The notes under the pieces were generated by a model, which saw nothing but the letters and a program-made list of their open reading frames with translations, ran no database searches and was not told the origin of the DNA. Made by a program: the position numbers and the translations under genes. From Rhizophagus irregularis (taxonomy: Eukaryota): 64,000 bases of DNA. The stretch is from the NCBI RefSeq assembly GCF_026210795.1, contig NC_089435.1, forward strand, positions 1,736,001 through 1,800,000, read 5' to 3'. Positions 17,274-41,429 of this stretch are shown piece by piece; the first letter of the stretch is position 1; every line of letters begins with the position of its first letter.

Positions 17274-17325
17274 TTTTATATCATGTAAAGTTTTTTTTAA
17301 TTTAACTTATTTATACTTAATAAAA

Positions 17326-19154: not shown

Positions 19155-19160
19155 TAGTAT

Positions 19161-19780: not shown

Positions 19781-19783
19781 AAT

Positions 19784-19801
19784 TGGTGCCTTCTGCCAGA
19801 A
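19784..19801 (+). promoter_or_regulatory. Primer-binding site of Gypsy 2
   Basis: TGGTGCCTTCTGCCAGAA 3 nt after the LTR; resembles the complement of a tRNA-His 3' end (unverified). Confidence 0.75.
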
Positions 19802-19835
19802 ATCATCTGAATCCCTATTTTAATCCTTTCTTTTT

Positions 19836-21006: not shown

Positions 21007-21488
21007 GTCGTCGGGCTGGTAGTGTGCCTCGCTAGCGCTCACCCCACCTCGGCCAGAGCCTCGCAGTACCTACATCCCCCTCCGTGGGGCAGGGAACCCC
21101 CCATAGATCCTCCACAATTCTCCACATAGATCCTCCACAAAAATATATAACAAAAAAGGATAAAATAAGGGAAAAGAGAGGAAAATAAGAGGGAATCGGA
21201 GAAGTGTGGAGGATGTGGAGGATGTGGAGGACGTTTTAAAAAAATCGGGAGAGGGATCCCCCCAGAAAAAAGTTTTGATTTTACCCCCCAGATCCTCCAC
21301 ATCTTCCACATCTTCCACACGTACAGGATTCCATTCATTTTCCTATTGGAAGCAATGAGATAGCAAACCAGGTAAGTTATTAGCAGGTAAGTCCCTAGAA
21401 GGCCTGTAGAGCCATAGAGATATAACCGGGTAGGAGCGCGGATCTTTGGAAAAAATATATTCGGCAATTGAAGATTAGGTAACTATAA
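21007..21488 (+). repeat. Left TIR of element B
   Basis: Reverse complement of 35452-35933; by eye 1 substitution and 2 compensating homopolymer indels. Confidence 0.97.
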
Positions 21489-21517
21489 ATTAGTACTCGA
21501 TTTGATAGAACGAAAAA

Positions 21518-23863
21518 ATGACCACTCAAGCTCAAGTTATCCCTAAGTTCGGTGAACAAAAGAAAGCCTTCAGTATCGATGAGCTTAAACGGCTTATTGT
21601 CGCTGCAAAGAGTATGAGTGACCTCGATCAAGCCAAGAGGTATCTTTGCAGTTATTTCATTCCCTGTGCAGATCCTCATGGGGTTTTCTGGTGGGACCCG
21701 GATAGTAAAAGTTTGAAACACGTTATTGACAAAAATATTGGTAAACTTATCCGTCCAATCACGAAGGCATTCTACACACAACCTGAACAAGGACCCTCTC
21801 AAAAGACCGAGTTCAACATCTACAAGTGGTTTATGGTCGAGAATACCGATGTATGTAATGCAACCTGTGATCCCCATAAACAGCGAATCTTCAGATCCTT
21901 AACTGGCCAACTCTATCTAAATATCTTCCCGGGATTCCTCCACGTCTTGCGTCCAATATCCACCTTTGAGTCTACAATCCACCTCGCGGTTAAATTTATC
22001 TTTTCTCATATTCGGGATATCTGGTGTTCAGGCGATTGGAATCTTACTGAGTATATCATTAAGTGGTTGGCCGGTGTATCTGCTGGAAGGAAGATGTACT
22101 CGATTCTTTACCTGAAATCTGGACAGGGTTGGGGCAAAGGTATTATAACAGATTTCATTCAGCGCAGCGTCCTAGGCACTCAACTCGTTTATAAGACCAG
22201 CGATCCTCGGACGATTCTTGGAAGTTTTAATGGGCAATTACAGGGTAAGGTTCTTCTTCTTCTCGAGGAAATGCCCACGGAAAAAAGCCAGTGGAATAAT
22301 CTGTATCGCTCTTTGAAGGATAAGGTAACGAGTGACATAATGGAAATCCATGAAAAATACAAGACACCAACACATTATAAAAACTTTATGTCCACTATCG
22401 TCCTAACCAACGAAAATGCTCTCAGAGTGGAGAATGACGATAGGCGCACAGTGTTCTTGGATGTGTCACCATCCCGCAAGGGAGACCTCAACTACTTCAA
22501 AAGACTCAGTGACGCTATGAAATACCCAGGCGCCAGTGAGGCGTTCTATGCTTACTTGAGAGCCATCGCAGACACTTACCCGGACTTCAATGGAAATCCA
22601 CCACCTATGACAACATCCAAACAGGAACATATCATCTCGACTCTTCCACCCCTATTTCAGTTTATAAAGGATACATACCTCGTAATGAAAAATTATATGA
22701 CCGACCTACCTATTCAAGAATTTTATAGGGTATATACTTCATACTGTGAAACTCATGGCATTACACCCTTATCAAAGATAAACGCTTCTAGAATCCTATC
22801 AAATGAGCTAAGTATAAAAAGTAAAAAAATGCGTATAGGTAAAACAACACCACAAGTTTACAGTATATCCAGGGAGGATCTATACAAGAAGTTTCTCGGC
22901 AAAAACTGGATCCACGAAACAGACGAGATAGACATAGAAGGAATTGATATAGAGACTTCTAAGAAACCCGCATCAGACCCCAAAGCCTTGGAAAAGTTCT
23001 TGGCAAATATATATAATCCAGCTAACAATCCACAAGACGTACAAGAGAAACCCACTGAGAAAAAACCCGAACCCGCTGAGGAAAAACCCACTGAGAAAAA
23101 ACCCGAACCCGCTGAGGAAAAACCCGCTGAGAAAAAACCCGAGCCAGATAACTACGACGTTTTAGATGACTTGCTATCTGACTCAGATTTTACAACTGTG
23201 AACCCAGCTCCTGAACAACAACCCGAGTCTCCCGCAGAATCTTCTGCATCTGTCACTAAGCCTGACCCAGAACCGGCTTCTGAAGAGCAATTTATCCCAG
23301 AACCCGACACAGAACCAGAAGTTGACCGGGATCCTGAACCAAAGGAAGGCACTCGAGCGCACTGGGCTTGGCAAGAAAGACACCGATGGGATCGCAAACC
23401 ATGGGTTAAAAATTTAAAGGACCAGGTCTTCAATGATCTCTACAATACAGGTAAGGAATTATGGGCCAAGTACCAAGATGCGTCAGACGAATATGACTGG
23501 GAAATACTCGCGTTTGAAATAGAGGAATGTCCCACAACGCGTATTGAGGACGAGTACCAGTACTACCTTATGGAGGTAGTAGACCGCTTCAAGGACTGGA
23601 TTGAATATAATGGATACTTACCTAAAATACCTAGCCGTAAAGAACTCGCAGATTTAATAAGAATATACAAGGAGAATCGTAATGCCGAGATTATTCCCAC
23701 CCCCTCTGGTTATGAAACTATGAGGGCAGATAAGGGTAAAGCGCGAGAGATCCCCGAGGAACGTCCAAAAACTGATATGGAACGTGAATGGGAGGCCGCC
23801 AATGGAATCATCGATGACTGGGACGAAGAGGATACTGAGGGCGCTATCAACGACATATTGTAA
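21518..23863 (+). CDS. SF3 (D5-like) helicase with winged-helix region and acidic repetitive tail
   Basis: SGQGWGKG (Walker A), LLLEE (Walker B), IVLTN (motif C), DDRR; EEKPTEKKPEPA repeats. Confidence 0.85.
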   Translation: MTTQAQVIPKFGEQKKAFSIDELKRLIVAAKSMSDLDQAKRYLCSYFIPCADPHGVFWWDPDSKSLKHVIDKNIGKLIRPITKAFYTQPEQGPSQKTEFNIYKWFMVENTDVCNATCDPHKQRIFRSLTGQLYLNIFPGFLHVLRPISTFESTIHLAVKFIFSHIRDIWCSGDWNLTEYIIKWLAGVSAGRKMYSILYLKSGQGWGKGIITDFIQRSVLGTQLVYKTSDPRTILGSFNGQLQGKVLLLLEEMPTEKSQWNNLYRSLKDKVTSDIMEIHEKYKTPTHYKNFMSTIVLTNENALRVENDDRRTVFLDVSPSRKGDLNYFKRLSDAMKYPGASEAFYAYLRAIADTYPDFNGNPPPMTTSKQEHIISTLPPLFQFIKDTYLVMKNYMTDLPIQEFYRVYTSYCETHGITPLSKINASRILSNELSIKSKKMRIGKTTPQVYSISREDLYKKFLGKNWIHETDEIDIEGIDIETSKKPASDPKALEKFLANIYNPANNPQDVQEKPTEKKPEPAEEKPTEKKPEPAEEKPAEKKPEPDNYDVLDDLLSDSDFTTVNPAPEQQPESPAESSASVTKPDPEPASEEQFIPEPDTEPEVDRDPEPKEGTRAHWAWQERHRWDRKPWVKNLKDQVFNDLYNTGKELWAKYQDASDEYDWEILAFEIEECPTTRIEDEYQYYLMEVVDRFKDWIEYNGYLPKIPSRKELADLIRIYKENRNAEIIPTPSGYETMRADKGKAREIPEERPKTDMEREWEAANGIIDDWDEEDTEGAINDIL

Positions 23864-23948
23864 GCGCTATTTGAGATTATTTCTTTTTTTTTTCGTATAT
23901 ATATAGAAAGATATTATTTATAGTTGAAGACAAATCATATACATAAAA

Positions 23949-25802
23949 ATGCAATACTCAAGAATTGCCCGCACTTTACCAACACGACCTGACATCAAGG
24001 AACTTCAGTATTCCGGTGCTCGCTTTTCCAGAGGAGCTATCGCCAGACTCGGTCAGACTCTCCAGACGCGATTTCCAGATAGAAAGTTCCAGATCCTACT
24101 TCCCTATGAAAACTGGAAACCCGGTGGATGGACATCAGGAAACCAACCAGCCAGCCTCTTTTCACTATTAGACCATTATGATGAAGCACAACTACCGGAT
24201 GACGCAGACCCTGATTATTTTGAACGATTCATAATTTATGCAAGAGATAGTCCACCGGCCGCAGGAGGATGCAATGGGGAGCTAAATGATTGCCTGTATG
24301 AATGCCTAAAAAATATTTACGGCACATTCTCTAAAATGCCAAAGTCAATCGAAAAGCCCGAGTATATCAAAAAGGCATTAGGTCTCAATCGCGATGCTCC
24401 CATCCCAGTTTCATGCATGGACAAGGTTGAACAACTCGCAGGAAGTCTCGCAATTAATATTGTGGGGGACATTACCCGAATCTCTAAGAGTAAGTCCGAT
24501 AGACGTGCGACTCTCATCCTATCAGAAGGCCATTACTCCCTCACGTTAAATCCTGGAAGACTCCACCCCAGTAAAATAGATAAAAAGCGTAATTTACCCA
24601 TTGTATACCATGAAGATGGGACCAATAATGTAGTCACAATATACAACGGCAAAACAGTTAAGTCTTGCACAATTGCGCAGTTTCAAAAAACTAAGAATTC
24701 CAAAAGTTCTTTCATCCCCGTCGAGAAAAACCGTAAGACTGGAGTATATGAAACTCTTGAAGAAGCATATCAGAGAATCCACGAGGAGCGGAATTCCTTT
24801 CTACAGGAGACAAAGAAGTTCGGTTTAGGAATCGACTTATCATACCATAACTGGTCTTACAAAAGAACGGCTCTCTGGTTATTCGAACGATTAAGTGTAG
24901 GAATTCCAGCCAATGATCCTCTTGACCCGATAGAAGCGGAGTGGTTAAGTGATGCAATGATGGGAGGATTAATCTGGGCAGATAACGAGTGGAAAGGCTA
25001 TGGAAGACAGTATGACGCAACAAGTTTATACCCGAGTATCCAACAATCAAACGTGAACTTTCCAATCAGACGGGGTAAATTCCAGACACTTAATGACTTT
25101 GTCGACCACAGGGGTTATGCCTTGTATGGATTATTCCGTGCCAAAATAAGTGGGAATAATATTCTCTTCCGACAGAATAAAAGGGGAATCTATACATTCA
25201 TCGACTTACAACGAGCAAAAAAACTTGGTCTCAATATACAGTTAATACAGGATGGGAAGCCAAATGCATTGATATATGATAGAGAAGCGAGAATCCCTGG
25301 AACTGTAATATTCGGTGAGTATGTACACTTCCTCTTCAAAATTAAAAACCAGGGTGGCATAGCTGGCCGCGTGGCAAAGCGAGTCCTCAACACATTATGG
25401 GGAGCATTATGCCAGAGGAAGCGTAATTACAAGACACTCACCACAGATCAAACAGACCCATTTACATTTCCAGAGGGCCATACACTCGACTCTATCATAC
25501 CAGTAGGATCTGACCAGTGGCGATTCCAGTTTACAAACCCGGGTAATCCCTTCAAAGGTGAGTATCCCAGGATCGCCCCATTCTTATTAGCACGTGGTCG
25601 CAAAATCACATCTGAGGCAATTCAACCATACAAGGATAAAGTACGACGTATCCATACAGACGGATTTATTTTAGAAGAACAGCCAGATAGCCCCGCGCTT
25701 TTCACTTGTTCAGAGAATGCAGATACGACTCTAAAGACTTTCAAGTTTGAAACCGCGGGATACTGCCATGTGAAAAATGCGAACAAGGTTATCTGGACAT
25801 GA
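23949..25802 (+). CDS. polB: Compact protein-primed-type family B DNA polymerase with putative OTU-like N-terminal domain
   Basis: GG, YDATSLYPS, KRVLNTLWG, IHTDG; NDCLYECL...GHY upstream. Confidence 0.85.
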   Translation: MQYSRIARTLPTRPDIKELQYSGARFSRGAIARLGQTLQTRFPDRKFQILLPYENWKPGGWTSGNQPASLFSLLDHYDEAQLPDDADPDYFERFIIYARDSPPAAGGCNGELNDCLYECLKNIYGTFSKMPKSIEKPEYIKKALGLNRDAPIPVSCMDKVEQLAGSLAINIVGDITRISKSKSDRRATLILSEGHYSLTLNPGRLHPSKIDKKRNLPIVYHEDGTNNVVTIYNGKTVKSCTIAQFQKTKNSKSSFIPVEKNRKTGVYETLEEAYQRIHEERNSFLQETKKFGLGIDLSYHNWSYKRTALWLFERLSVGIPANDPLDPIEAEWLSDAMMGGLIWADNEWKGYGRQYDATSLYPSIQQSNVNFPIRRGKFQTLNDFVDHRGYALYGLFRAKISGNNILFRQNKRGIYTFIDLQRAKKLGLNIQLIQDGKPNALIYDREARIPGTVIFGEYVHFLFKIKNQGGIAGRVAKRVLNTLWGALCQRKRNYKTLTTDQTDPFTFPEGHTLDSIIPVGSDQWRFQFTNPGNPFKGEYPRIAPFLLARGRKITSEAIQPYKDKVRRIHTDGFILEEQPDSPALFTCSENADTTLKTFKFETAGYCHVKNANKVIWT

Positions 25803-25865
25803 TTGCTAGGGACCGGTATGTATATTTTTTACTGACATATCGTGATGGCATAATTGAATAAACCT

Positions 25866-26390
25866 ATGGGATATGTAATCTTACGAGATACCCAAATGCA
25901 AAACACCGACGGATTAGGTAGACAAGACGACGAAAGTTTCCACGTGTGGGCTAAGCGCATTCAGAATGCTGTGCAATATTATGAGACTTGTAGTAGAATA
26001 GGTTTTCATAGGCGGCTACCTTATCCAAGGTCTCGTCAAGCTGTATATGCTTATATTGTGCACATTAGGAGAATAGTATCACGACTACCAAATAGGTGGT
26101 ACTGTACCTACTGTAAATCTTTTATTGATCGCGGATGGGGAGCTGACGCTTTCATGGATCAAGCGGTGCGACTACATTTATATAGTTGCCCAAAGCATTT
26201 TAATTTCGACTATTATACTCATCATGCTGAAATGATCCAGAATGCCTTTAGGAGATATATAGAAAGAAGGAACAATAAAGCGGCTAGGATAATCCAGAAA
26301 GTCGCTATCCCCTGGTTATATAGACCAGGCTCTCCATTGATGCAAAAGGCCGAGCGACGCTTCTACTGTCTTGCAGTATCCCAAGTGTAA
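25866..26390 (+). CDS. Hypothetical protein with Zn-finger-like and IQ-like motifs (start uncertain)
   Basis: CTYC..HLYSC; IQNAFRRY and ARIIQK..W. Confidence 0.65.
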   Translation: MGYVILRDTQMQNTDGLGRQDDESFHVWAKRIQNAVQYYETCSRIGFHRRLPYPRSRQAVYAYIVHIRRIVSRLPNRWYCTYCKSFIDRGWGADAFMDQAVRLHLYSCPKHFNFDYYTHHAEMIQNAFRRYIERRNNKAARIIQKVAIPWLYRPGSPLMQKAERRFYCLAVSQV

Positions 26391-26472
26391 ACCCCGAGGT
26401 TCATATTTATTTTTTCTCATTCGAATGAACAGGTAACTGAAGATTTATATTTTTTACAAAGTACAAAGAATC

Positions 26473-26943
26473 ATGTCAACATATACCGAATTCGCAAGCA
26501 TTGTTAACAGCACTGACAGCACTAGTGAGGAGGTTATTTACGAGGCATCGCGCATTCAGCCTAATGTTGTCTCTGACGAAACTGTCCCCAAGATTATCCG
26601 CGCATTAAAAGATACTATAGTAATCGCATTAGTATCTGGGTTTAGCAAAACCAGTTACCTCGTCCAGGACCACGTGAAGTATATCAAGCGAATCCAAACG
26701 GCAAATTCTCCTGTATCATATGTGAAGTTCGTGGCCAGAAAACTCTTCCCAGATAATGCGGCATATACTGCTAAAATAGCAAAAATCCGCGAATCATACA
26801 AGAATAAACAAGCTCTCCTAGATAAGCTTGAGGCCCTCTTCGAATTGTATTATAATGCGACTAAGGACTCATCAACCGGTCCCCCAAAGCGAGCTATTAC
26901 TAAAAACGAGGCTGAGAAAACCTTAACAGAACTTCTTGCATAA
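26473..26943 (+). CDS. Uncharacterised helical protein, homologous to element A ORF 16896-17273
   Basis: 156-aa ORF with upstream AACTGAAGAT motif; similar to the element A protein. Confidence 0.8.
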   Translation: MSTYTEFASIVNSTDSTSEEVIYEASRIQPNVVSDETVPKIIRALKDTIVIALVSGFSKTSYLVQDHVKYIKRIQTANSPVSYVKFVARKLFPDNAAYTAKIAKIRESYKNKQALLDKLEALFELYYNATKDSSTGPPKRAITKNEAEKTLTELLA

Positions 26944-27052
26944 GCGGCTCCTGTGGTCCTACGATTCTGTACGAATTTAGTCTATATTTTTTATCCATGT
27001 GTAATAGGCATACAGTAATTGAAGATAGCTATAGTATAAGTAACATAACATC

Positions 27053-27457
27053 ATGTTGGACCGATTACCAGTAGAAATAGTCGAACGCATTGTCGCAAAG
27101 ATCCCGGATACTGACCTTATTGCAGCGAGTAAGGTAGATAGAGTGTGGTGGCAGGAAGTTCGTCGAGAGGCATATAAGAGGTGGAAAAATTATGCCACTA
27201 CGATCGGGGATGTGTACTGTGAAATCCGAGCTCTCGGAAAGCATTATATAAAGAGGGAAATTGACTGGATAACGTTTGAAGATGTAAACGACTTCTATAA
27301 AAGATGGATAGACCGCCTCACCGAGGATCAGCTTTATATTATGGAGAAAATGCTTAGGAATGGGATGGTCGTGGACCCCCAAGAGAGGGAAACCATAGAG
27401 CATGCATTAAGTGAACAAAGATGGGGAGGCGATCCTTGGAGACTGGGAGTGGTATGA
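27053..27457 (+). CDS. F-box protein
   Basis: N-terminal LDRLPVEIVERIV...L...SKVDRVW matches the F-box consensus. Confidence 0.8.
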   Translation: MLDRLPVEIVERIVAKIPDTDLIAASKVDRVWWQEVRREAYKRWKNYATTIGDVYCEIRALGKHYIKREIDWITFEDVNDFYKRWIDRLTEDQLYIMEKMLRNGMVVDPQERETIEHALSEQRWGGDPWRLGVV

Positions 27458-27796
27458 ATGGACTCAACAGGAGTAAGCATTTTGTACTTGACTTTCGTAG
27501 GAATTACCCTGCAGAGTCATATTTTTTAGATCCGGCCGGCATTACCGCGTAATCCCGAATTACCGAAAAAGGAAATTTATGTTACACAAGATTCCAAACG
27601 CATTTTTACCAAAATCGATTTTTTGTGGAACGGGTATCGCCCAAAAAGGAAATGATCTACGTACCACATGAAGTCACGTGACACTCTACACATTTGTTCA
27701 GGGTATCACGTGACATGAACTCCGTTCACATTTTCTGTAATATAATCCATAGTTTTTTCATGAATGCTTTTTAGGCCAATAATCCAATAACTTATT

Positions 27797-27946
27797 CATC
27801 AGGTATCCTCGTGTTTTGCGACAAGGACTGATGACCATGTAACCTCATCATCAGGCATCCTCACATTTTTTGACAAGGACTGATGACCATGTAACCTCAT
27901 CATCAGGCATCCTCGCATTTTTTGACAAGGACTGATGACGATGTCA
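27797..27946. repeat. 52-bp tandem repeat x~3 with internal dyad symmetry
   Basis: Units start at 27797, 27849 and 27901; CATCAG..TCCT pairs with AGGA.CTGATG. Confidence 0.92.
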
Positions 27947-28005
27947 CTTGGTTATTGTAAATTGAAGATAACAATTAGGTATGTAGACACGTACAGAAAA
28001 AAGAC

Positions 28006-28590
28006 ATGTCATACCCTTATATAACTAATCCTATAACCGGACGTCCAATCCGTGTTGGTGGAGATACCTTTAATCGAATAGTTATGGAATCCCATGATTA
28101 TATCGATGGAAGGCTTGTCCGTAGACAAACCGTACCGCCTCCACCCCAGGAACAACCTGTATATTTAAATACAGATACAGGACGCTATATTCAACACGGT
28201 ACTAGAACGTATCATAGACTGGTTGAGAGTGACTACGAGGTAGTTGAGGACTACTACCTTGTTCATTCTGAAGAGGAGGAGCTTATAGAGGAAATCATCA
28301 ATGAAACACGCTATAATGAGGAAAATCTTGATGGCCAGCGGTTAACTTTCAATAATGTACAACAAATCAGAGCCGCTATTCAAGCTGACCAAGATGAATA
28401 TGATGATTTTATCTTACAGCAGAATACGACTAACGGGACACCTTCCTCCGGTCCTTCCGGTCGTCCACGAACTTTGGAGGACCATGCCCCGAGACTTGCA
28501 GAGCTTAATATTGAGTTGTGTAGGGAATGTCTCATGCCTGTAAGCCCAAGTGACTTAACGGACAAGTTGTGCAAGGACTGCGCTTCCTAA
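28006..28590 (+). CDS. Hypothetical protein with duplicated N(P)xTGRxI motif and C-terminal Zn ribbon
   Basis: NPITGRPIRVGG and NTDTGRYIQHG; CREC...CKDC. Confidence 0.75.
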   Translation: MSYPYITNPITGRPIRVGGDTFNRIVMESHDYIDGRLVRRQTVPPPPQEQPVYLNTDTGRYIQHGTRTYHRLVESDYEVVEDYYLVHSEEEELIEEIINETRYNEENLDGQRLTFNNVQQIRAAIQADQDEYDDFILQQNTTNGTPSSGPSGRPRTLEDHAPRLAELNIELCRECLMPVSPSDLTDKLCKDCAS

Positions 28591-28750
28591 TGGTCAGTCC
28601 TCCGGTCCTCTGGTCTTCCGGTCTTTCCAACGGTTGATCCCTTAATGCCAGTTATTTTTTTTTATACAAATGACAGGTATTTAAAGATAACAATATATAA
28701 AAAAGATTGTGAAGGATACTAAGTGAGCGAATAATCAAAGAAAGATAGCC

Positions 28751-29302
28751 ATGTCAACATCAATCGTAATAAACCAGTGTCAGAACTGTGGAGTATTCTC
28801 TGCAAAAGCGGCATATAGAGGATTATCCAGCGTGTTGTATAGACAGATTATAAAGAAGATTGGTGACGAGAGTGAACCTTTACAAGCCTTGGGACTTGCC
28901 AGGGATAAGTTGGTCCAGATTATCCGTCGGGCAAGTAATGCGGATTTTACACAATTATTCACACAAAGACTAGATATGAAAATTATGGACGGAGATTCAT
29001 ACGAGGATACTAGGAAGTGGCTTCTTGAACAGCTTATAGCCATTGGATGTGACAGTGGGGAAATTGCCTTATATCAGTTCTTACGGAATACATACCCGGA
29101 TGGTATTGACGAACCCTTTACTACATTCTATGAGAACTATGTAAATCATGTAAGAAATCCGATGACTAAGAACTTTGCTTCTCGAGCCTTAGGAGCTATT
29201 GGATTAAAAGCTAGGATGCTACGGATTGACTTCGAAGGACGTAAAAAAAGCGCCATGATTCTTAGGGCTTCTGCGGAAGAACTTCGCGAGATGGGTTGCT
29301 AA
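28751..29302 (+). CDS. Protein resembling the helicase C-terminal winged-helix region
   Basis: LYQFLRNTY..FYENY..PMTKNFASRAL versus helicase LFQFIKDTY..FYRVY..PLSKINASRIL. Confidence 0.75.
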   Translation: MSTSIVINQCQNCGVFSAKAAYRGLSSVLYRQIIKKIGDESEPLQALGLARDKLVQIIRRASNADFTQLFTQRLDMKIMDGDSYEDTRKWLLEQLIAIGCDSGEIALYQFLRNTYPDGIDEPFTTFYENYVNHVRNPMTKNFASRALGAIGLKARMLRIDFEGRKKSAMILRASAEELREMGC

Positions 29303-29315
29303 AGCAACCAGATTC

Positions 29316-30506
29316 TTACAAAATACTATTGATCCCTACTCGTAATGCTCGACGGTCCATATGACCCTTAGAAAAGATCTGTAAAAGGACCCCGATGCCT
29401 TCTATTAATTTTTTATTATCCAAAGGGTGACTAGACTTCAGGACTTCATATCGGGAGAATAACTCCTTTACGGTCTCAGATTTTGGAATTTCAGTCTTTG
29501 CGGTCCTATCCCGTACTTTTGCTAAGAATTTTTGGAAGTCCGATCCCAGGGTTTTACCAGATAGTCCGTAGGCTTCCCGAAAGACGTACTTAATCCAGGT
29601 ATCTGCGTTCTTAGCTATAATACCAGATACGAGGAGGTGTTTTCTCTCTTTAGGCGATGGATATTCCCGAGCAAACTCAATTAGCTGGGAGGACTTTTTT
29701 GCTTCAGCTACAGCTTTCTGGCCATAAGGACTAAACTTTGATCGAACTGGGTTCAAACTCGGATCGAACGGGGATTGAACTGAGTTCGAACTAGGATCGA
29801 ACTGAGATTGATCAGTGATCGAACTGAGACTAGTATCCCATCTAACCCGAATGGATAACGGATCGCTCTTGGATCTTCTAAGATCAAATACTATAAATTC
29901 GCGTTGCAGAGTAAGGTCATCGATTACTGGAGCTAGTGACTCCGATTCTTCTGTATACTGGCGGATGATCCTCTTAGTATCAGTCAAACTTCCGTGACCT
30001 CCATGTAGGGAAATATAATTCACATTTTCACGAATAGCCTTGGGAATGGTAAAGAATCTTTGGGCCACATAAATACATGAAATATTTTTGTGTTGTCCGT
30101 GTGTAAAAAATCCAGTGATGAGATCCTGGGTTTTTTTAGGCGCATCCATCAAATCCTCGAAGATTACCACAGTAGCCTGGGTGGAGTTGAAGTCCTTAAC
30201 ATTTGGAATCTCACTATGGGATACTGCGGTAAACGGAATTTCTTCTTCTTTGAAAAAATCACGTACGATTGCCCACTTCGGTTCATCGAGGTATCTGCCA
30301 ACTAGAATTACCGCATCACATAATATGTACCTTTCGCCATCCTCCTTTGCCTTCTTGTCTCCCATTAACAAATTAATGATCATAGTTGTCTTACCCGAGT
30401 CAGAACTTCCTGCTACGGCAAGACAGAAAGGCCATGATGGGGCAAACTCATTACCCTGTCTCGAGTCGGTCGTGTACTCGTCCAAATTGTATACATAAAG
30501 ATCCAT
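29316..30506 (-). CDS. A32-like (FtsK-HerA) DNA-packaging ATPase
   Basis: VAGSSDSGKTT, VVIFEDL, THGQHKNISCIYVAQ..IPKAIREN (canonical GRHxxIS...Q...P..IR.N). Confidence 0.88.
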   Translation of the reverse strand: MDLYVYNLDEYTTDSRQGNEFAPSWPFCLAVAGSSDSGKTTMIINLLMGDKKAKEDGERYILCDAVILVGRYLDEPKWAIVRDFFKEEEIPFTAVSHSEIPNVKDFNSTQATVVIFEDLMDAPKKTQDLITGFFTHGQHKNISCIYVAQRFFTIPKAIRENVNYISLHGGHGSLTDTKRIIRQYTEESESLAPVIDDLTLQREFIVFDLRRSKSDPLSIRVRWDTSLSSITDQSQFDPSSNSVQSPFDPSLNPVRSKFSPYGQKAVAEAKKSSQLIEFAREYPSPKERKHLLVSGIIAKNADTWIKYVFREAYGLSGKTLGSDFQKFLAKVRDRTAKTEIPKSETVKELFSRYEVLKSSHPLDNKKLIEGIGVLLQIFSKGHMDRRALRVGINSIL

Positions 30507-30534
30507 TTGAATTTTATTCTAATTTAGTTTAAAT

Positions 30535-31248
30535 ATGATGTCGACATCGACACCAATTGCAATTTATACTCCTTCAGAGCCTACTGGACCGCCTCCTAGG
30601 GATTTGCGTGATATGAATAATATACCATTAGTTGCGGTAATTAAGGATCTAACAGATTTTTTAACTGTCAGTGATCGCATGGTTGTTAATCGAGATGTAC
30701 AAAATGCAAACCATCGTCTTAAACATGCTCTTAATTTATTAATTCATCGCTGTAGAGAAACATACGAAGAACGTGATATATTAAAAGCGGAACGCGATCG
30801 ATCTCGAAAAGAACGCGATGAATTACAAGACGAACTCGAGGTTCAAACAGGTTTGTTAGGTCTTACACAAGATGAGCTAAATAACGTACAAGATACTATT
30901 ACTAGTTTAGAAGCTAATTTGGCTGAATTGGAACGGGAGTTTGGTGGTATGCGGACGACTAATCGTCGTCTTCAGCAGCAATATAATCTTATGAGAGGAG
31001 AACGTAATAGAGCTATAGGTGAACGTAATAGAGCTATAGGCGAGCGTGATGTGGCACGAAATCGGCTTGTATATGCCAATAATCGGGTTCTTTTTGGAAT
31101 TCGGACATTGGGACGTCTTAGGAATCGACTTTTCCAACAAATAGCCGCTCTGCGTATCCAAGTACAATGGTTTCGGATTAGACAATTGAACCCTCCTCCA
31201 CATCCTCTCAACCATCCACAAAATACGATATGGCTGCCGTTGGTATAG
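30535..31248 (+). CDS. Coiled-coil protein, probable N-terminal part of element B Gag
   Basis: Heptad-rich with GERNRAI repeats; overlaps the gag start; the equivalent region is fused to Gag in element A. Confidence 0.75.
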   Translation: MMSTSTPIAIYTPSEPTGPPPRDLRDMNNIPLVAVIKDLTDFLTVSDRMVVNRDVQNANHRLKHALNLLIHRCRETYEERDILKAERDRSRKERDELQDELEVQTGLLGLTQDELNNVQDTITSLEANLAELEREFGGMRTTNRRLQQQYNLMRGERNRAIGERNRAIGERDVARNRLVYANNRVLFGIRTLGRLRNRLFQQIAALRIQVQWFRIRQLNPPPHPLNHPQNTIWLPLV

Positions 31249-32726
31249 CTGCCCCCATATTTCATGGTCGGGAAGATGAAGATCTTAATCTTTTTATTGA
31301 TAACTTTTTAGGGTATATTAATACCGTTGGTATTGATCCATTGGACGATGCCGGTGCGCCTCCTGGTCGGGTGCGAGCGATGGGGGTTCTTCGTAGCTGT
31401 ATGAGAGATGAAGCGGCGAGGTGGTTTGATGCAGAACTTACTGGAAAAAATTGGGAACTCTCGAATATTCGGTTAGTGGCTGCTGCAAATGGTGGAGCCG
31501 GTGCTACTCGCCGAGCGTTCAGAGCTTTAGCTGTTCCTGAGGTTGCTAATGGATTACATGTTGGTACTTACTTACCCGGGTCTGATGCTGATGTATATTC
31601 AAGGGTTGCAGGTAATGCGGCGGTAACCGTTGGAGATGCATTTTTCCCATCACGCGCTGATATCGTTAGAACGAATTTTAAAGTTGAAGAGCAGTGGAGG
31701 CGTGCGGGCGGACGTCCTACTCATCAACCCGTTAATGGGTTGGGAAATCATGGAGGTCCATTTAATGCTGCTGTCCAGAATCAACCAATAGTCTTACAGG
31801 GGATTCTCCTGGATCAAGCATTTATGCATATGCGTACAAATTTTCCAACCGTCGTGGAAGAAAGACTTCAGATACGATTTAGTAATCTTTACCAGGAACA
31901 AGGTGAACCTGTTCGATCTTACTATAAGCGAGTTGAGAGGGCTGGGGATATTGTAGGATATAATCGAATTATGGTTACTGACCAGTTCTATAGAGGACTT
32001 TTGCCGGAAAACGTTATTGAAGCTTCCAGAATCGGGGCGGCACCTCTTAATACATTAATCGATAGATTGAGTGATCTTGAGCGACGAAAGGGCGAAATGT
32101 TCTATGGATTACAAAGGCGTCAGGGTATTGAAAAGGCTAAAAAAGAGGAATTGGCTGGCTATACTCATCCCGTGACTCCACACGAAGGTGCTGTAATACA
32201 AAGGTCGACAGACGTTATTACTCAAGAACGATTACAAGAATTGCTCAAGGCACAAGCCGAGGAACTTACCAAGAATTTCCAGGCACAATTTAAACAATTA
32301 CAAGCATCTAAGCCAGTTCGTAAACCACCGGTCTATAGACAACAGATTAAACCTGTTCGACCAAAACCACAGAGACGTGTCATTCAGGATCCTCAGGATC
32401 CTGATTGGGATGATGGTTATGTAGATCATAATTTTGGTGATGACCCTGGTGACCCTGATGCTCCTGAGTGGACTAGTGAGGATGATCAACATGTTATTGA
32501 TCTTATTATGGGATATGAGACGTCTAAAAGATTTCCAAAGAGACTTCAGAAGGCTAAAGATAGACGCGATGATCTGGAATTAGCCCGAGCAATGAGAAAC
32601 CTCGATCTTAATGATGATGCTATGGATATTGATACTAATACCACGAGTTTTGATGACTTGAAAATTGTTCCCGATGAGGAAGGTGGTTTTCGGATTTGTG
32701 TGGTTCGAAGTACAAAAAAAAAGTAA
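31230..32726 (+). CDS. Retrotransposon-type Gag (capsid-like) protein of element B
   Basis: PIFHGREDEDLNLFIDNF, AARWF, major-homology-region-like LYQEQGEPVRSYYKRV, QFYRGL. Confidence 0.85.
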   Translation: MAAVGIAAPIFHGREDEDLNLFIDNFLGYINTVGIDPLDDAGAPPGRVRAMGVLRSCMRDEAARWFDAELTGKNWELSNIRLVAAANGGAGATRRAFRALAVPEVANGLHVGTYLPGSDADVYSRVAGNAAVTVGDAFFPSRADIVRTNFKVEEQWRRAGGRPTHQPVNGLGNHGGPFNAAVQNQPIVLQGILLDQAFMHMRTNFPTVVEERLQIRFSNLYQEQGEPVRSYYKRVERAGDIVGYNRIMVTDQFYRGLLPENVIEASRIGAAPLNTLIDRLSDLERRKGEMFYGLQRRQGIEKAKKEELAGYTHPVTPHEGAVIQRSTDVITQERLQELLKAQAEELTKNFQAQFKQLQASKPVRKPPVYRQQIKPVRPKPQRRVIQDPQDPDWDDGYVDHNFGDDPGDPDAPEWTSEDDQHVIDLIMGYETSKRFPKRLQKAKDRRDDLELARAMRNLDLNDDAMDIDTNTTSFDDLKIVPDEEGGFRICVVRSTKKK

Positions 32727-33445
32727 ACTCGGATAAGGGTGTAAGTATCTCGAAACTTCTTAAATCTGTTCCAAAAAAATCAGTTAAAATGACTCCTATT
32801 AAGATTCCTGTGAAGGTTACTAGTAGTAAGCCCACACTTATAAAAGCCGTCACCAAAAATGATTCATTAAGTTTATTAAGGTCTGCAGATTTTAGGAAAT
32901 TACTCCGCGAGATTCTTCGGGAAGAATTAAAGTCTGCTCGTAAAAGTACGGAGATTCCGGAAGACCTAGTTGAGGAAAAACAAGAAGAGGATATCAGGGA
33001 AGATGACCCGATGGATATTGACATAGCTCGTTTGGAGAATACTAAAGATCTTTTAGCGCTGGATGGGGAGGTCAATGGGATAGCAATTCAGTGTTTAGCA
33101 GACACTTGTGCTAACGCGTCTTTTATTCAGAGGGAAGCCGCTGAAGAATTAGGGTTGGATATCGACAAGAGTATTACACATAACATATCCGGCGCTCCGG
33201 GTTCTGGTAGGACATTCGGCATGGTAAAAGGTGTGTCAATCAAACTAACCCCTGATTGTGTAATCACTGAGAATCTCGCGGTTTTAAGCGATTACAAGCA
33301 TAGGGAGATTGGATTGAGCCGGACGTGTCTGAAACGTTACAATTATGATGTCCATGAATCACGTGAACATATCGCCCTTACTTGTAATGAGAAGAATGTT
33401 TTTATCCCGATAGTTTCTGATGTGAATCGAGGAGACAAAAAATAG
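32696..33445 (+). CDS. Retropepsin-like aspartic protease, probably made by -1 frameshift from gag
   Basis: CLADTCANASFI..AEELGL, ISGAPG flap, IGLSR; in the -1 frame behind A AAA AAG TAA (32717-32726). Confidence 0.82.
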   Translation: MCGSKYKKKVNSDKGVSISKLLKSVPKKSVKMTPIKIPVKVTSSKPTLIKAVTKNDSLSLLRSADFRKLLREILREELKSARKSTEIPEDLVEEKQEEDIREDDPMDIDIARLENTKDLLALDGEVNGIAIQCLADTCANASFIQREAAEELGLDIDKSITHNISGAPGSGRTFGMVKGVSIKLTPDCVITENLAVLSDYKHREIGLSRTCLKRYNYDVHESREHIALTCNEKNVFIPIVSDVNRGDKK

Positions 33446-33459
33446 GGAATATTTATTTT

Positions 33460-34551
33460 TTATTCCCAAAACTTGCGGATTAAGGCAGGGACATCCTCCT
33501 CCAACCGGTCAGTGGGTTCCCAAGTGGCTTCGGTATCTGGGTATCGTTCCCACTTGACTAGATACTGGTCTTGACCCTTCCTGATGCGATGCCGGAGTAT
33601 CCGCTCAGGTACAAATCTTTCGGGTTGCCCTCTTATCATGGAGTCAGGTGGGGGATGTTCATTTTCTGGAACAATCTGCAACTCTTTTCGGGTGTACGCA
33701 CATCTGGATACACCTAGACGCCCGTGTGGTCCATCAAGAAGATACGTAGGAGGCTGTTCGGGTGAGAGGATCATTTTTTTGATGACACGGATATTGGGAT
33801 TCCATCTTATGTCACCTGTACGAAATTTTCCATGGAGTTTATTCCCGAGTACTGAAATAGGTTCGTCTAACTTGACTCGGACATGTGTTCCTTCAGAGAG
33901 AAGTTCCGTCTTTTTTGACACTTTGGGTGACCCTGTCGGAATGTCTGGGGGATTTCTCTGCCAGATTTCATCTATTTTATTAACTACATCACGGAAATCT
34001 TCTGACCATTCCACGGATGTCACCCCGGTCTTCAACTCCTGTGCCACCATTCGTTTTAGGAGAGGCTCCTGGATCGCTTGGATAGCTCGTTCAGCGTATG
34101 ATTGCTGTTTGTGTCTTCCTGGCTCTCCAAACCTCATCATCACCCCTAGGCTGTTCAGGAAAAAATCACGTACCTGATCATTGGTGAATTCTGATCCGGA
34201 GTCTGTCTCCATTCGATGTGTTGGTGGTTTAATGCGATTTCTTCTGTAGATTTTAACAAATCCATTGAGAACCCTATTTGCAGTCTTATCCTTTAGGAGT
34301 TCTGCATCAACTCGTTTACCCGCGACTTCCACCACTATGAGAAAATAGTGGAATCCTTTGGGGTCGACTGGCATCTCTGCGAGATCTGCCTGATGCGTCG
34401 CATTTGGTTTCCATACAACTACTCGTGGACGCTCTGATGACTTTTCCTTTAGGGGCTTTTTGTATAGGTTGTAGTGCTCCTCACCTTTTAGAATTCGTGC
34501 TGGTACTCTGGAGAGATTGTAGTATTTGTAGTAATTCTCTAAATGCGACAT
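33460..34551 (-). CDS. Polinton-type c-integrase with C-terminal chromodomain
   Basis: HQADLAEM, TDSGSEF, AERA; chromodomain PERILRHR..YLVKWERY...TWEP. Confidence 0.93.
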   Translation of the reverse strand: MSHLENYYKYYNLSRVPARILKGEEHYNLYKKPLKEKSSERPRVVVWKPNATHQADLAEMPVDPKGFHYFLIVVEVAGKRVDAELLKDKTANRVLNGFVKIYRRNRIKPPTHRMETDSGSEFTNDQVRDFFLNSLGVMMRFGEPGRHKQQSYAERAIQAIQEPLLKRMVAQELKTGVTSVEWSEDFRDVVNKIDEIWQRNPPDIPTGSPKVSKKTELLSEGTHVRVKLDEPISVLGNKLHGKFRTGDIRWNPNIRVIKKMILSPEQPPTYLLDGPHGRLGVSRCAYTRKELQIVPENEHPPPDSMIRGQPERFVPERILRHRIRKGQDQYLVKWERYPDTEATWEPTDRLEEDVPALIRKFWE

Positions 34552-34595
34552 ATTACGACAAATTAAAGGAAAGATTTCGGACTTCAAATCTTAAA

Positions 34596-34916
34596 ATGAC
34601 ACGATTTTACTGCCTAAAGTGTAAGAAGGAAACCGAGACTGCTAGTGAAATACAAGATATGACCACAAATGGCCGCTATCGTTTACATGGTGATTGCACA
34701 GTTTGTGGTATGCATAAGAATACTTTTACTGGGATAGACTGGGTTATCAAAAAGAAAACCAAGGAGAAGAAAAAAGAAACTGCGGCTAAAAGACATCAGA
34801 CGGCGTACAATCGGCAATGCAAAAAACTCGGGCAGAAAATCTTAGAGGCTGATGACGCGTGTAAACAGTGTATTGATAAATGCCTTAAGGAGGCAAAAAA
34901 GAGGAAGACGGATTAG
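34596..34916 (+). CDS. Small Zn-ribbon basic protein (DUF5679-like)
   Basis: YCLKCKKET...TTNGR....GDCTVCGMHKNTF; AAAATG start. Confidence 0.75.
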   Translation: MTRFYCLKCKKETETASEIQDMTTNGRYRLHGDCTVCGMHKNTFTGIDWVIKKKTKEKKKETAAKRHQTAYNRQCKKLGQKILEADDACKQCIDKCLKEAKKRKTD

Positions 34917-34925
34917 TACCGCCTT

Positions 34926-35441
34926 CTAAAAGTATTCCTCATCATCTGAGTCATCGAGAGATACCTCTCCATCATCTGATTCATCATCCGAGTCGTCAGG
35001 AGTGCGACCTTCCTTAAGCAATTGGATGTTGTACGTTATTTGAGTCCATTTCTCCCAGTCGGACTCTTGCGTTATAAAGCCGCATCTGAGGAGTGCTCTT
35101 TCTATTACTACCATCCCTGCAAACCTGGTGTATTTTTTCTGATCGGCTTCATTGAAATTGTCAATAGCTTCTTTGTAGTAGTCTACTGCTTGTTTGTATA
35201 CCTCTTCGGCTTCTTTATGCCGCTTCCACAACTCGGCTTTACAACAGTTATACCAGAGTCTGTTAATCTTGAGATGTTTTCCGAATTCTTTAACCGGAAG
35301 GTTTCTGACCATCTCTGCTACTATGTCCGGGTCATTGAGGGGTGATGCCTGAATTTGGATCCATTTACGGATTCCATAGATGTCTACAAGATCAAGCCCG
35401 AGGTCTTCGGCAAGAGAAGTGGCGGCGTGTAAGTTTATCAT
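34926..35441 (-). CDS. Putative divergent F-box protein with acidic tail
   Basis: LNDPDIVAEMVRNLPVKE....KINRLW; starts just inside the right TIR boundary. Confidence 0.65.
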   Translation of the reverse strand: MINLHAATSLAEDLGLDLVDIYGIRKWIQIQASPLNDPDIVAEMVRNLPVKEFGKHLKINRLWYNCCKAELWKRHKEAEEVYKQAVDYYKEAIDNFNEADQKKYTRFAGMVVIERALLRCGFITQESDWEKWTQITYNIQLLKEGRTPDDSDDESDDGEVSLDDSDDEEYF

Positions 35442-35451
35442 TGTATGTTAC

Positions 35452-35933
35452 TTATAGTTACCTAATCTTCAATTGCCGAATATATTTTTTCCAAAGATCC
35501 GCGCTCCTACCCGGTTATATCTCTATGGCTCTACAGGCCTTCTAGGGACTTACCTGCTAATAACTTACCTGGTTTGCTATCTCATTGCTTCCAATAGGAA
35601 AATGAATGGAATCCTGTACGTGTGGAAGATGTGGAAGATGTGGAGGATCTGGGGGGTAAAATCAAAACTTTTTTCTGGGGGGATCCCTCTCCCGATTTTT
35701 TTAAAACGTCCTCCACATCCTCCACATCCTCCACACTTCTCCGATTCCCTCTTATTTTCCTCTCTTTTCCCTTATTTTATCCTTTTTTGTTATATATTTT
35801 TGTGGAGGATCTATGTGGAGAATTGTGGAGGATCTATGGGGGTTCCCTGCCCCACGGAGGGGGGATGTAGGTACTGCGAGGCCCTGGCCGAGGTGGGGTG
35901 AGCGCTAGCGAGGCACACTACCAGCCCGACGAC
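35452..35933 (-). repeat. Right TIR of element B
   Basis: Reverse complement of 21007-21488; ends ...GCCCGACGAC, followed by ATAGG. Confidence 0.97.
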
Positions 35934-35938
35934 ATAGG

Positions 35939-36415
35939 GCAAAAGCTTATGAGTTGACTCATAAAGATCAACATGCCGTCAATGCTTATCTAAATAAATT
36001 TGCGCCGTCTGGCACCGGCAATCAATCAGATGACCTTCTTAAGGCAATCAACGAGTTGACTAAACAAGTTCAAAACCTAAGTACTGGAAATCGTGGTAAT
36101 AGAGGTTATAATAATAGTAGTGATTTTAGAAATACGAGTCAATCAACGACATATACACCAAACCGTCAAAACCAAATCGTGTGTTATTCATGTGGTCAAT
36201 CCGGACATATTGTTAGATATTGTCTGAATGGTAATAATAATGATATCCCTAATAATCGACCACCACCACCTATTAATAATAATGGTAATACTAGTAATAA
36301 CAATACGACCGTCCCTCAACCAGCTAATGATAGTGGACAACAACTGGCACAAATTCAGCAGATGTTAGCCCAATTATTACCTCAAGATAATACTAGCGAC
36401 CAATCTTTAAACTAA
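35939..36415 (+). pseudogene. gag: Gypsy 2 gag, 3' part
   Basis: In frame with the 5' part once element B is removed; CYSCGQSGHIVRYC knuckle; ends at T TTA AAC TAA. Confidence 0.9.
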
Positions 36416-39400
36416 ATGGCGTACCTTCGGAGGGTAAGCGTACATGCCAAAAGACAATCCCCTCAAACCTTACATTATTGGAAACGTATTCCGCTACTAG
36501 GACAACCTGTAGCATGTCGAGATTAAACCCGTTAGAAGGAACATTAAAGGAGAATCCTACTGAAGAGGAAAATGTATTACGGGCTACGCAGCAAGTGAAT
36601 AAAAGTAAACGACCGATAAAGATATCGGATGTAAGACAAACCGAAGCTAAAAGGATAGTACAAAAAGGAACCAAAAAGAAATTGGTTACTGTAGCCCCAA
36701 TTAACAAAATGGTTGAGCCGTATACTCCTCAACAATTTTTTGACCAAAAGGCTGATATCACCAATGGTCAATTGTTGGCTATGAACCCGAAATTTGGATT
36801 GACAATTGCCAAACAATTACGAAAACCTGTAGTTAGAAAAAGGGACGATGACCAGGACAAGAAAACAATTAAGATGGTAATCGACGAAGTGACCCAAGAA
36901 AATGGAAATACGCCTGAAGTCAATGATTTACTACAAGTAAATCTTTCAAAACCAAACGATGATAAAACTTCAGCGTTATATTGTGAAGCCTTGATAAATC
37001 ATATCAAGTTTCCACTAATAGTCGATTCAGGGTCAGCTGGAAGTATTATATTCTTATCGTTATTAAAGGATTTAGAAATGGAAATAACCTAAGCGTCAAA
37101 AACTGTTATGGTCAACGTAAACGGTAAAAGACAAAGGCCGTTAGGGGCAGTAACCAATCTGCTACTAAAAATACATGGTTGTATTATCCTTATAGACGCC
37201 ATCGTTACAGACGCTAACTCATATTCCGCAATTGTTGGTAACGACTAGTTACGAAAGACTAAGGCTATCTTAAATTATGATAGCAATATAATGGTCATTA
37301 AGTGGCAAGACGAAACGTTTGAAGTCGCCACTGAGTGTAGGGAGATGCCTCAACACATTGTAAGTATTGAAGTGCCTGACTTGGAGGTAGATGAAAATGA
37401 AGAGGAAGCCGCTAACGAATCTGAAGAAGAAGAGTACGAAAGCGATGACGAAGAAACGCAAGATCAATTATTTTGCAATGCTCAATTTATAACTAAAGAA
37501 CAAGCGCAAGAAATCGAAGATGATTTAAAAGACAATAAACTTGTCAAAAATGAGTTTTATTATCAATATGAAGAAATAGAGAAGGGCAATTTTCATACAG
37601 GAAAACTGAGTAAAGAACAACATCAGAAATTCCGAAAGTTTATGGAGCGACATCAGAATTTGTTTGCCTGGAATCCTAATGATTTCGGACAAACATCGGT
37701 AATCACCCATAGTATCGATACCGGAACTGCCACTCCAGTTAAACAAAGGTTTTACCAAACTTCATATCAAAACTAATTGTTTATAAAGGATGAAATACAA
37801 TGACTTTTAGAAGCGGGACTAATTATACCATCAAAAAGCCAGTGGACTTCACCAGTAGTAGTTGTAAAGAAGAGAAATGGTAAAAAACGCCTTTGTGTAG
37901 ATTACCGAAAGCTGAACAAAATTACGAAAAGAGACAATTACCTGTTGCCAAGAGTAGATGATATGCTGGAAACCTTGTCAGAATCTCAATGGTTTTCATT
38001 CTTGGACCTTGCCAGCAGTTTTTGGCAAGTTGAATTGGACTCAAAAGACAGAGAAAAATCGACCTTTATCACCAGGTTCAGAACATATGAATTTACGGTG
38101 ATGCCCTTCGGTCTTTGTAACGCTCCTGCCACTTTTCAGCGTTTAATGGACACAGTATTGCGGGATATACTATGGCAATTCATCATAGTATACATAGACG
38201 ATATCAATATAGGTTCCAAAACATTCGATGAACATCTTCATCATTTGGAACAGGTTTTTTATCGATTGGAACAGGCTGGTCTCAAATTAAGCCTGGAAAA
38301 ATGTTTCTTCTTTAAAGAAGAAATCCCATTCTTAGAACATATTGTAAGCCGGAATGGCATACAAACCGATCCAGAAAAATTGCAAACTATCAAGGAGTTT
38401 CCTATACCACAGGACTTAACGCAACTAAGGGGATTCATCGCCCTAGCATCTTATTACCGAAAATTCGTAAAGAATTTTTCGTTTATCGTTGAACTGTTAA
38501 ACCGTTTATTAAAAAAAATGTCCCGTATGTTTGGGGTGAAGAACAACACGATACTTTTGAACGATTAAAGTGTTGTTTAATGACGCCACCAATATTGGCG
38601 TATCCTAATTTTACCAAACCTTTTATTCTTTATACGGACGCTTCCACTTTCACCCTTGGAGCTATACTATCGCAAAAGGACGAAGAAAGGAAGGAACGAG
38701 TAATTGCTTATGCGAGCAGGACTCTCAATAAGCATGAGTGAAATTATGGCGTTACTGAATTAGAGTGTCTTGCCGTCGTATGGGTAGTAAGACACTTTCA
38801 CCATTACCTTCACGGTCAAAAATTTCTTGTTATAACTGATCATGCAGCGTTGAGGTATTTGATGAATATGACTAACCCGATCGGCAAATTCGGCAGATGG
38901 ATAATGACTTTAAACGGATATGAATTGGAAATTATAAATCGCCCAGAAAAATTACACTCCAACGTAGATTCATTAAGCCGAATAAGAGTTAATAAAACTG
39001 ATATATTATATTTTTCTTTACACACACTGGATTAACATTTTTGACACCTCTTTAACGGATTTCCCATCTTTAGATTAACAGAATGGATTTAACAACGTAT
39101 TACTTACTCATCTGATATTTGACAGATTTTTCAATGCTGACTAATATCTCAAAAGAGCAGCAGGCTGCTATAAAAAAAAAGTCTCGATATTTTATAATTT
39201 TAAATAATCAGTTATACAAAAAGAATAAAGACAACCCTAACAGGCCAATTAGAGTAGCTAAAGAAAGTGAAATAGAGGAAATTTTATATCATACACATTC
39301 GGATCCTTTAGCTGGACACTTCTCGATTGACGAAACCTATTGAAGGGTAAAAATCTGCTATTACTGGCCGCAAATGTTTAAGGATGTTCGTAGATATGTA

Positions 39401-41418: not shown

Positions 41419-41429
41419 GAGGAGAGTGA

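Follow-up and report, generated by a model that had tools for sequence, protein, structure and literature searches.

The closest described relatives of the element reported here are the Polintons of Glomus. The element itself is a 14,927-bp Polinton-type transposon, bounded by 482-nucleotide (nt) terminal inverted repeats (TIRs), at positions 21007-35933 of the window, the whole stretch of 64,000 nucleotides that was analysed from Rhizophagus irregularis (assembly GCF_026210795.1, contig NC_089435.1, positions 1,736,001 to 1,800,000 of the forward strand). P_Gi1.1 (Polinton-1_GI) and P_Gi1.2 come from the same host group (PMC4028283). In Table S1 of that paper, the 11,019-bp P_Gi1.2 has the ATPase and lacks the major capsid protein (MCP), the penton protein and the cysteine protease; the window element, too, combines the ATPase with no recognisable gene for these three. 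The comparison is by table rows, and neither these rows nor the passages considered mention gag or retropepsin. The missing capsid of the G. intraradices Polintons is stated as unresolved by Bellas 2021 (PMC7805220). Starrett et al. 2021 (PMC8502044) define the labels Gag/retropepsin and S3H in the legend to their Fig. 5. The element shown there is probably of the same kind, and its gene content is probably depicted already; section 3.4 neither discusses it nor names its host, and draws no link between Gag and the packaging ATPase. Literature searches, with subscription papers and Repbase outside their scope, returned no text beyond that legend discussing a Gag-bearing Polinton or its Gag-ATPase link. 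Glomus Polintons are already known, and it is a working pairing of Gag with the ATPase that would be new.

Within the element, the open reading frame (ORF) of the ATPase and that of a coiled-coil protein diverge from ATGs that are 28 nt apart, and gag follows the coiled coil. The module comprises the following features (aa, amino acids; CA, capsid).

29316-30506, minus strand: predicted A32/FtsK-HerA packaging-type ATPase, 396 aa (Pfam Pox_A32; core 15-230 and helical C-terminal domain 255-395)
30507-30534, no strand: 28-bp spacer separating the two start codons; AGTTTAA block in 5/5 aligned copies
30535-31248, plus strand: coiled-coil ORF, 237 aa; its Pfam matches are coiled-coil models only
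31230-32726, plus strand: Gag, 498 aa, with predicted CA N-terminal domain, insert, CA C-terminal domain and tail; ends in A AAA AAG
32678-33445, plus strand: retropepsin-like aspartic protease ORF with a D-T-C motif (Pfam Asp_protease_2, E 3.9e-8)

The preliminary description of this DNA had placed the ATPase head-to-head with Gag. The divergent arrangement and the 28-bp spacer hold, whereas the direct partner of the ATPase is the coiled-coil ORF and gag comes next: position 31230, where Gag begins, lies 724 nt from the start of the ATPase, and the Gag ORF, in the -1 frame, shares its first 19 nt with the end of the coiled-coil ORF. Observed are this architecture, selection on the ATPase, and a GQH sequence at the arginine-finger position that is rare among homologs. 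We give an even chance to the reading that gag-pro has taken the place of the capsid module in this Polinton and that the ATPase loads DNA into a Gag shell. The altered arginine-finger motif is an ordinary part of the finding, and the capsid swap is the interesting one.

The A32-like label of the preliminary description is borne out. Pfam Pox_A32 matches the protein at 34.9 bits against a cut-off of 22.8, and the structural model (predicted local distance difference test, pLDDT, 78.5) contains an FtsK/HerA core (about residues 15-230), to which a distinct helical domain at 255-395 is added. In a structural search of BFVD, 18 of the top 50 rows were named A32, packaging, IVa2 or FtsK ATPases, the remaining ones being mostly unnamed, uncharacterised or generic P-loop proteins. 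The viral matches include A32-like, IVa2, virophage and adintovirus ATPases and do not separate these clades. Among solved structures, B204 of STIV2 (Z 12.8 over 176 residues at 3.6 Å) stands near the top in a tie with VirB4, DndH and HerA, and FtsK relatives are also present; the top PDB rows of Foldseek are clamp loaders with poor TM-scores, and the ATPase profile found no match among PDB sequences. Judged from sequence motifs and the predicted fold, the ATPase is of the A32/FtsK-HerA type. The family conserves K39, E117-D118, R138 and Q149, corresponding to Walker A, Walker B, the arginine finger and the Q sensor, with the arginine absent from the window copy. This motif set, including the arginine-finger and sensor pair, is described in PMC11703096, and a 2026 preprint (10.64898/2026.06.19.733378) places A32-like ATPases of Glomus/Rhizophagus with those of Maverick-Polinton elements.

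The ratio of nonsynonymous to synonymous substitution (dN/dS) in the ATPase core is 0.03-0.07 in 4/4 comparisons between the window and metagenomic loci, and 0.14-0.18 for the tail in the three metagenomic loci that hold it. More than 70% of the tail can be aligned in 42 of 51 further homologs, and several of its residues never vary. Purifying selection on the core, together with the conserved tail, therefore implies that the family keeps a working enzyme and the extra domain, and the ATPase is not degenerate in most relatives, an outcome that had been considered beforehand. The C-terminal helical domain (about 140 aa, 29319-29741, minus strand) has no Pfam match and no usable Atlas match; this family-specific domain is a candidate adaptor.

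The pairing of ATPase and Gag is a trait of the family and no accident of the window copy. A metagenome scan yielded 118 pattern matches and, from these, four short loci, in all of which the ATPase and the coiled coil stand head-to-head across spacers of 31-54 nt with the AGTTTAA block in common. Because 4/4 loci keep both the layout and this block, the arrangement is beyond chance. One locus (L001) is long enough to show gag, which follows and is 46% identical to that of the window. In R. irregularis, 5/5 ATPase/Gag pairs, chosen for the same small contig size, have neighbouring accession numbers, and 28 of 44 ATPase contig sizes recur among the Gag matches listed, seven of them below 300 kb. 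Among distant Gag records, 3 of 34 equal an ATPase contig in exact size (3/14 at ≥3 kb, with 0.14 expected); in these three pairs Gag is 30-34% and the ATPase 52-60% identical to the window proteins. On this indirect evidence, distant ATPases and Gags likely share contigs.

Although Pfam finds no match in the window Gag, the predicted structure supports the earlier Gag label. Residues 1-300 were searched against 1.84 billion representatives, which gave 155 relatives; from the 150 listed, 63 with suitable coverage were selected and aligned to the query. The model (pLDDT 90.9; predicted TM-score, pTM, 0.83) consists of a CA N-terminal domain, a β-containing insert of about 125 aa (residues ~70-195), a CA C-terminal domain (~205-290) and a tail that is basic/proline-rich and acidic. 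In the VIA structural comparison, rows 1-36 consist entirely of CA proteins (36/36), be they of retroviruses, of retrotransposons or domesticated, and several of them are matched across both domains. The best Z is 9.0, murine leukaemia virus CA aligns over 179 residues at 3.7 Å, and the first unrelated row has Z 4.8. Foldseek gave no match at E≤0.001, the best being PEG10 CA at 0.014, and the Gag profile matches PEG10 CA at E 6.7e-4. Retrotrans_gag is matched at E≤0.01 by 17 of 31 long Gag homologs, two of them scoring above the cut-off; Atlas features of the homolog P0238 are also part of the basis for the CA fold. Taken together, a two-domain retroviral CA fold with an insert of about 125 residues is predicted. 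A Pfam scan found no zinc knuckle in this Gag. Reverse transcriptase (RT) was found in 0/31 long Gag homologs, a weak negative since pol may lie in another frame.

The insert in the CA N-terminal domain (31440-31815) contains β-strands, is confidently modelled and varies between relatives. Distant relatives include predicted proteins with the coiled coil at the Gag N-terminus. Gene models contain introns that join coiled coil, Gag and protease, but these differ from record to record and are not evidence of splicing. R. irregularis also has a second coiled-coil/CA type (P0229-P0240), about 50% identical, whereas the Gag tail and protease joined to it are near-identical; this suggests that the capsid module has been swapped among copies.

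The protease is likely made as a Gag-Pro fusion by -1 frameshifting, because Gag ends in A AAA AAG TAA, the -1 frame of the protease is open across the Gag stop, and a lysine-run end is found in 11 of 16 Gag homologs (32-50% identity) among those listed, the other five being shorter and truncated-looking. The protease motif at 33101-33109 reads D-T-C rather than D-T/S-G; the same D-T-C is present in 100/100 homologs where the motif was found (120 scanned).

No double-jelly-roll capsid gene was recognised, every ORF above 240 aa between the TIRs belonging to another family. Given the size expected of a double-jelly-roll capsid protein, there is no room for its gene, because the largest unassigned ORF has 237 aa and the largest ORF-free gap 548 nt, part of which is tandem repeat. 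Pfam and PHROG, by sequence comparison only, gave no capsid or penton family match in the small ORFs, and Pfam gave no adenain-like cysteine protease in any ORF of the element; the aspartic protease is present instead. There is also no RT match between the TIRs by Pfam, and no pair of long terminal repeats (LTRs) among the repeats listed around the gag-pro cassette; the ends are inverted repeats, not LTRs. Long TIRs, a 5-6 bp duplication, a family B polymerase and an RVE integrase define the element as a Polinton/Maverick transposon. It has no recognisable double-jelly-roll gene such as polintoviruses have, and it lacks the RT and LTRs of LTR retrotransposons. Its other features are as follows.

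21007-21488, plus strand: left TIR, 482 nt, preceded by the target-site duplication ATAGG at 21002-21006 (a 6-bp ATAGGG also fits)
21518-23863, plus strand: D5-like superfamily 3 helicase, 781 aa (Pfam DUF5906, E 5.9e-17, and weak Pox_D5; Walker A/B present)
23949-25802, plus strand: short protein-primed-type family B DNA polymerase, 617 aa (Pfam DNA_pol_B_2; PHROG DNA polymerase, E 3.4e-5; motifs)
25866-29302, plus strand: five small accessory ORFs of 174, 156, 134 (weak F-box match), 194 and 183 aa
27788-27947: 52-nt tandem repeat within the accessory-ORF stretch
33460-34551, minus strand: RVE (DDE) integrase with chromodomain, 363 aa (Pfam rve, E 6.7e-8; Chromo, E 3.8e-17; DDE motifs)
34437-34916, plus strand: DUF5679 ORF
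34926-35441, minus strand: 171-aa ORF
35452-35933, minus strand: right TIR, followed by ATAGG at 35934-35938

The two TIRs agree in 480 of 483 aligned columns. The integrase is convergent on the protease and therefore lies on the strand opposite gag-pro. Integrase, protease, polymerase and helicase retain their catalytic motifs in open ORFs. The Pfam DNA_pol_B_2 match of the polymerase (E 6.7e-6, 25.7 bits) is 0.1 bit below the cut-off of 25.8. The polymerase has the deviant motifs KxxLNTLWG and HTDG, no exonuclease motif evident by eye, and an N-terminal C...H pair that presumably resembles a vOTU domain. The word TGAAGA(T) occurs 25-50 nt upstream of the helicase, the polymerase and several accessory ORFs (21468, 27019, 27962, 35465-35472, and near 23924 and 26438), with none upstream of the coiled coil or gag. 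Five of nine TGAAGAT occurrences fall in such upstream windows against 0.26 expected, a word that was chosen by eye and of which two are TIR copies; it is possibly an early-gene promoter word that separates replication genes from capsid genes. A bacterial promoter scan of the 28-bp spacer, ill-suited to a fungal host, was at chance.

DNA contigs of four sequencing runs cover all 30 bins of the element; no piece spans ATPase to gag among the contig pieces listed, and the Q138 base is absent from the differences listed against these runs (40 of 1,319 rows). The nearest named homologs are from R. irregularis, at up to 98-100% identity, and further ones are from R. clarus, Diversispora epigaea and Entrophospora candida, which marks the host as a mycorrhizal fungus. 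Scans of IMG/VR with the ATPase, the ATPase alignment and the polymerase of a second element in the window found no relative.

How the module might operate can be outlined as follows. The element would be copied as linear 15-kb DNA by its own polymerase and helicase, while Gag and frameshifted Gag-Pro would assemble a shell that is matured by proteolysis. A ring of the ATPase could dock via the family-specific C-terminal domain, the coiled coil or the CA insert and pump or condense the element DNA in the shell, and the integrase would insert this DNA at a new site. The ATPase and coiled-coil/gag sides may be co-regulated. The interior of a Ty3-like shell is about 40 nm, of which 14.9 kb would fill approximately half by our estimate, and a motor at such density is plausible. 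Nine MCP-less Polintons in PMC4028283 also lack the ATPase and the protease. Since the ATPase is usually lost with the capsid, its retention here suggests that there is a shell to serve. On a broader version, which we hold tentatively and at somewhat less than even confidence, the elements would be a double-stranded DNA (dsDNA) virus lineage in mycorrhizal fungi with Polinton-like replication and a Gag virion filled by an A32 motor, i.e. a stable chimera that joins the replicon and pump of a varidnavirus to a capsid of ortervirus type. The CA insert, the coiled coil or the ATPase C-terminal domain may be the docking site of such a chimera, one that is otherwise missing in retro-type capsids.

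A number of points weigh against a Gag shell filled by the ATPase. Retro-type capsids co-assemble around RNA and are not known to have a portal vertex; a pump would therefore need a further adaptor. In L001, an ATPase core 91% identical to that of the window stands beside a Gag N-terminus of only 47% identity, and Gag types in R. irregularis are about 50% identical with near-identical proteases; a capsid region so much more variable than the ATPase does not look like tight co-evolution. The dS values in L002 are 2.2 for the ATPase against 0.5 for the coiled coil, suggesting that the two sides of the spacer recombine or differ in constraint. The coiled coil is weakly constrained (dN/dS 0.49-0.79), and no frameshift-stimulating RNA structure was found downstream of the slippery run, where folding is on a par with shuffled sequences (z 0.21). 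As for linkage, 16 of the 44 R. irregularis ATPase contig sizes are without a counterpart among the Gag matches listed, the preserved portion of the second Maverick-like fragment in the window is without an ATPase, and Table S1 of PMC4028283 has two rows of Glomus Polintons that lack the ATPase. Finally, the seven small ORFs may hold a small single jelly-roll.

The strongest competitor, which we consider doubtful though well within reach, accepts the same swap and uncouples the functions: Gag would co-assemble around the DNA or integration complex with no pump, while the ATPase does another DNA job, such as replication translocase, end processing or packaging into the jelly-roll capsid of a helper virus. 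The wide variation of the capsid beside a stable ATPase would fit this account, as would the gag-pro fragment without visible ATPase in the same window and the presence of the non-packaging translocases HerA, VirB4 and FtsK among the nearest solved folds. It fits less readily with the tight divergent position of the ATPase in 4/4 loci and with the likely sharing of contigs between the ATPase and Gags only 30-34% identical to that of the window. Moreover, loss of the ATPase normally tracks loss of the capsid (PMC4028283), and no jelly-roll MCP has been found for the G. intraradices Polintons (Bellas 2021, PMC7805220).

Two accounts that tie gag-pro to retrotransposons are much weaker. One takes the element to be retro-like, with Gag packaging an RNA copy, RT borrowed from Ty3-type retrotransposons, integration by the element's own integrase, and polymerase, helicase and ATPase as leftovers. 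Gag, the -1-frame retropepsin and the RVE-chromodomain integrase would suit it, and RT-bearing retrotransposons are adjacent; it is nevertheless improbable, in view of ends that are 482-nt inverted repeats instead of LTRs, an integrase on the strand opposite gag-pro, polymerase and helicase ORFs that are open, strong purifying selection on the ATPase, and a Gag with no zinc knuckle found. The other sees in gag-pro a piece of a retrotransposon that became nested in a capsid-less Polinton only recently, or a passenger of that Polinton, as might be expected where the element itself lies inside an LTR retrotransposon and many nested elements occur in the window. This is already largely refuted and seems very improbable: no LTR pair is listed around the cassette, gene order is kept in diverged relatives, the lysine-run end is shared by most of the listed Gag homologs as described above, and the Gag N-terminus has a dN/dS of 0.31 (one comparison).

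The remaining question is the motif itself. The preliminary description read GQH instead of GRH, which is correct (G137-Q138-H139), and proposed that the copy may be inactive. Two positions are concerned.

30093-30095, minus strand: Q138 (CAA) at the arginine-finger G-R-H position, from homolog alignments
30423-30425, minus strand: C28 (TGT), mostly R in homologs, just before Walker A, from the homolog alignment and codons

The comparison of siblings that had been proposed shows Q to be a rare lesion of the window copy. Position 138 is R in 156 and Q in one of 165 homologs (171 rows, 6 gapped; some loci are represented by several splice-isoform models, and the rows are not independent), a first alignment had Q in 0/114, and in the metagenomic locus L004 the codon is CGA. 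The further true substitutions occur as isolated single cases (C, H, S, S), and the rest resemble mis-spliced models. Position 28, with R in 143/152 and C in 0/152 homologs, is a second private CpG-type change; these are the only two places where the window ATPase departs from a strong majority. CG methylation occurs in R. irregularis transposons (PMC8647823). Because R is near-universal, a second private CpG-type change is present and transposons are CG-methylated, GQH is explained as CpG-type decay in a young copy, and it holds no new information on the mechanism. A functional adaptation of the motor to the Gag capsid is hardly credible. The sole other Q, in P0487 of Diversispora epigaea, would speak for it, but the helix in question carries another change in that protein, and the homologs with R include Gag-linked ones. 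In the model, Q138 closes the helix that follows Walker B, ahead of the strand ending in Q149, and judging from the motif the change likely, though not certainly, weakens or inactivates the ATPase of this copy; the archaeal homolog B204 shows some tolerance of arginine-finger mutations (review table, PMC10551542). The suspicion of inactivity thus seems justified for the ATPase protein and does not extend to the other ORFs, which are open with catalytic motifs present.

The window is rich in nested elements, and RT-bearing retrotransposons adjoin the Polinton, which sits in the gag region of an LTR retrotransposon. The LTRs of this host, with 10 differing positions and 12 gap columns among 454, are more diverged than the TIRs, and a contig of run X1 carries a related retrotransposon copy without the insertion. 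The host (19156-21006 and 35934-41878) is degraded by stops and frameshifts. A Ty3-type retrotransposon at 2081-9034 is strongly purine-skewed and has gag, protease, RT-like and integrase ORFs. The second Maverick-like element is preserved as follows.

10061-17560: distantly related Maverick-like fragment with polymerase, coiled coil-gag-pro and integrase
10061-11731, plus strand: a different family B polymerase
12859-15821, minus strand: coiled coil-gag with zinc knuckle, broken by stops, with protease after an A-run
15854-16906, plus strand: divergent RVE integrase, 27% identical to the first

Direct BLAST finds no similarity between the Gags of the two elements, which are linked through intermediate homologs and a weak profile match (E 0.0014) only. 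Since this fragment also carries gag-pro, at least two Polinton-like lineages with gag-pro exist in the fungus.

A Gag capsid would explain the capsid-less Polintons of Glomus/Rhizophagus, one of which keeps a packaging ATPase (PMC7805220, PMC4028283). In R. irregularis, Mavericks belong to the elements whose expansion is most recent (PMC8647823), and they have expanded in Glomerales (PMC11952901); the mechanism therefore bears on the movement of DNA among the many nuclei of these root symbionts. If true, an A32 motor working with a retro-type capsid would mean that DNA virions can be built in a new manner, with a capsid swapped between virus realms.

With Ty3/gypsy elements (Metaviridae) and with PEG10, Arc and PNMA2, the window element shares the predicted two-domain CA, and gag followed by a -1-frame retropepsin. 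Unlike Ty3/gypsy, it has no RT/RNase H and no LTRs, its integrase is on the other strand, its CA has the insert of about 125 aa, a zinc knuckle was not found, and it has its own DNA polymerase. Caulimoviruses likewise hold dsDNA inside a Gag-related shell and have a retropepsin, but they produce it through reverse transcription and are not known to have a packaging ATPase, DNA polymerase B or TIRs. The shells with which A32-type motors are known to occur are of the jelly-roll kind. In contrast to animal Polintons, the window element has no recognisable double-jelly-roll MCP, penton or adenain, with gag and an aspartic protease instead, and it carries a D5-like helicase and the additional C-terminal domain of the ATPase. 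What it shares with animal Polintons and adintoviruses is the TIRs, the short duplication, the protein-primed-type PolB, the RVE-chromodomain integrase and the A32/FtsK-like ATPase.

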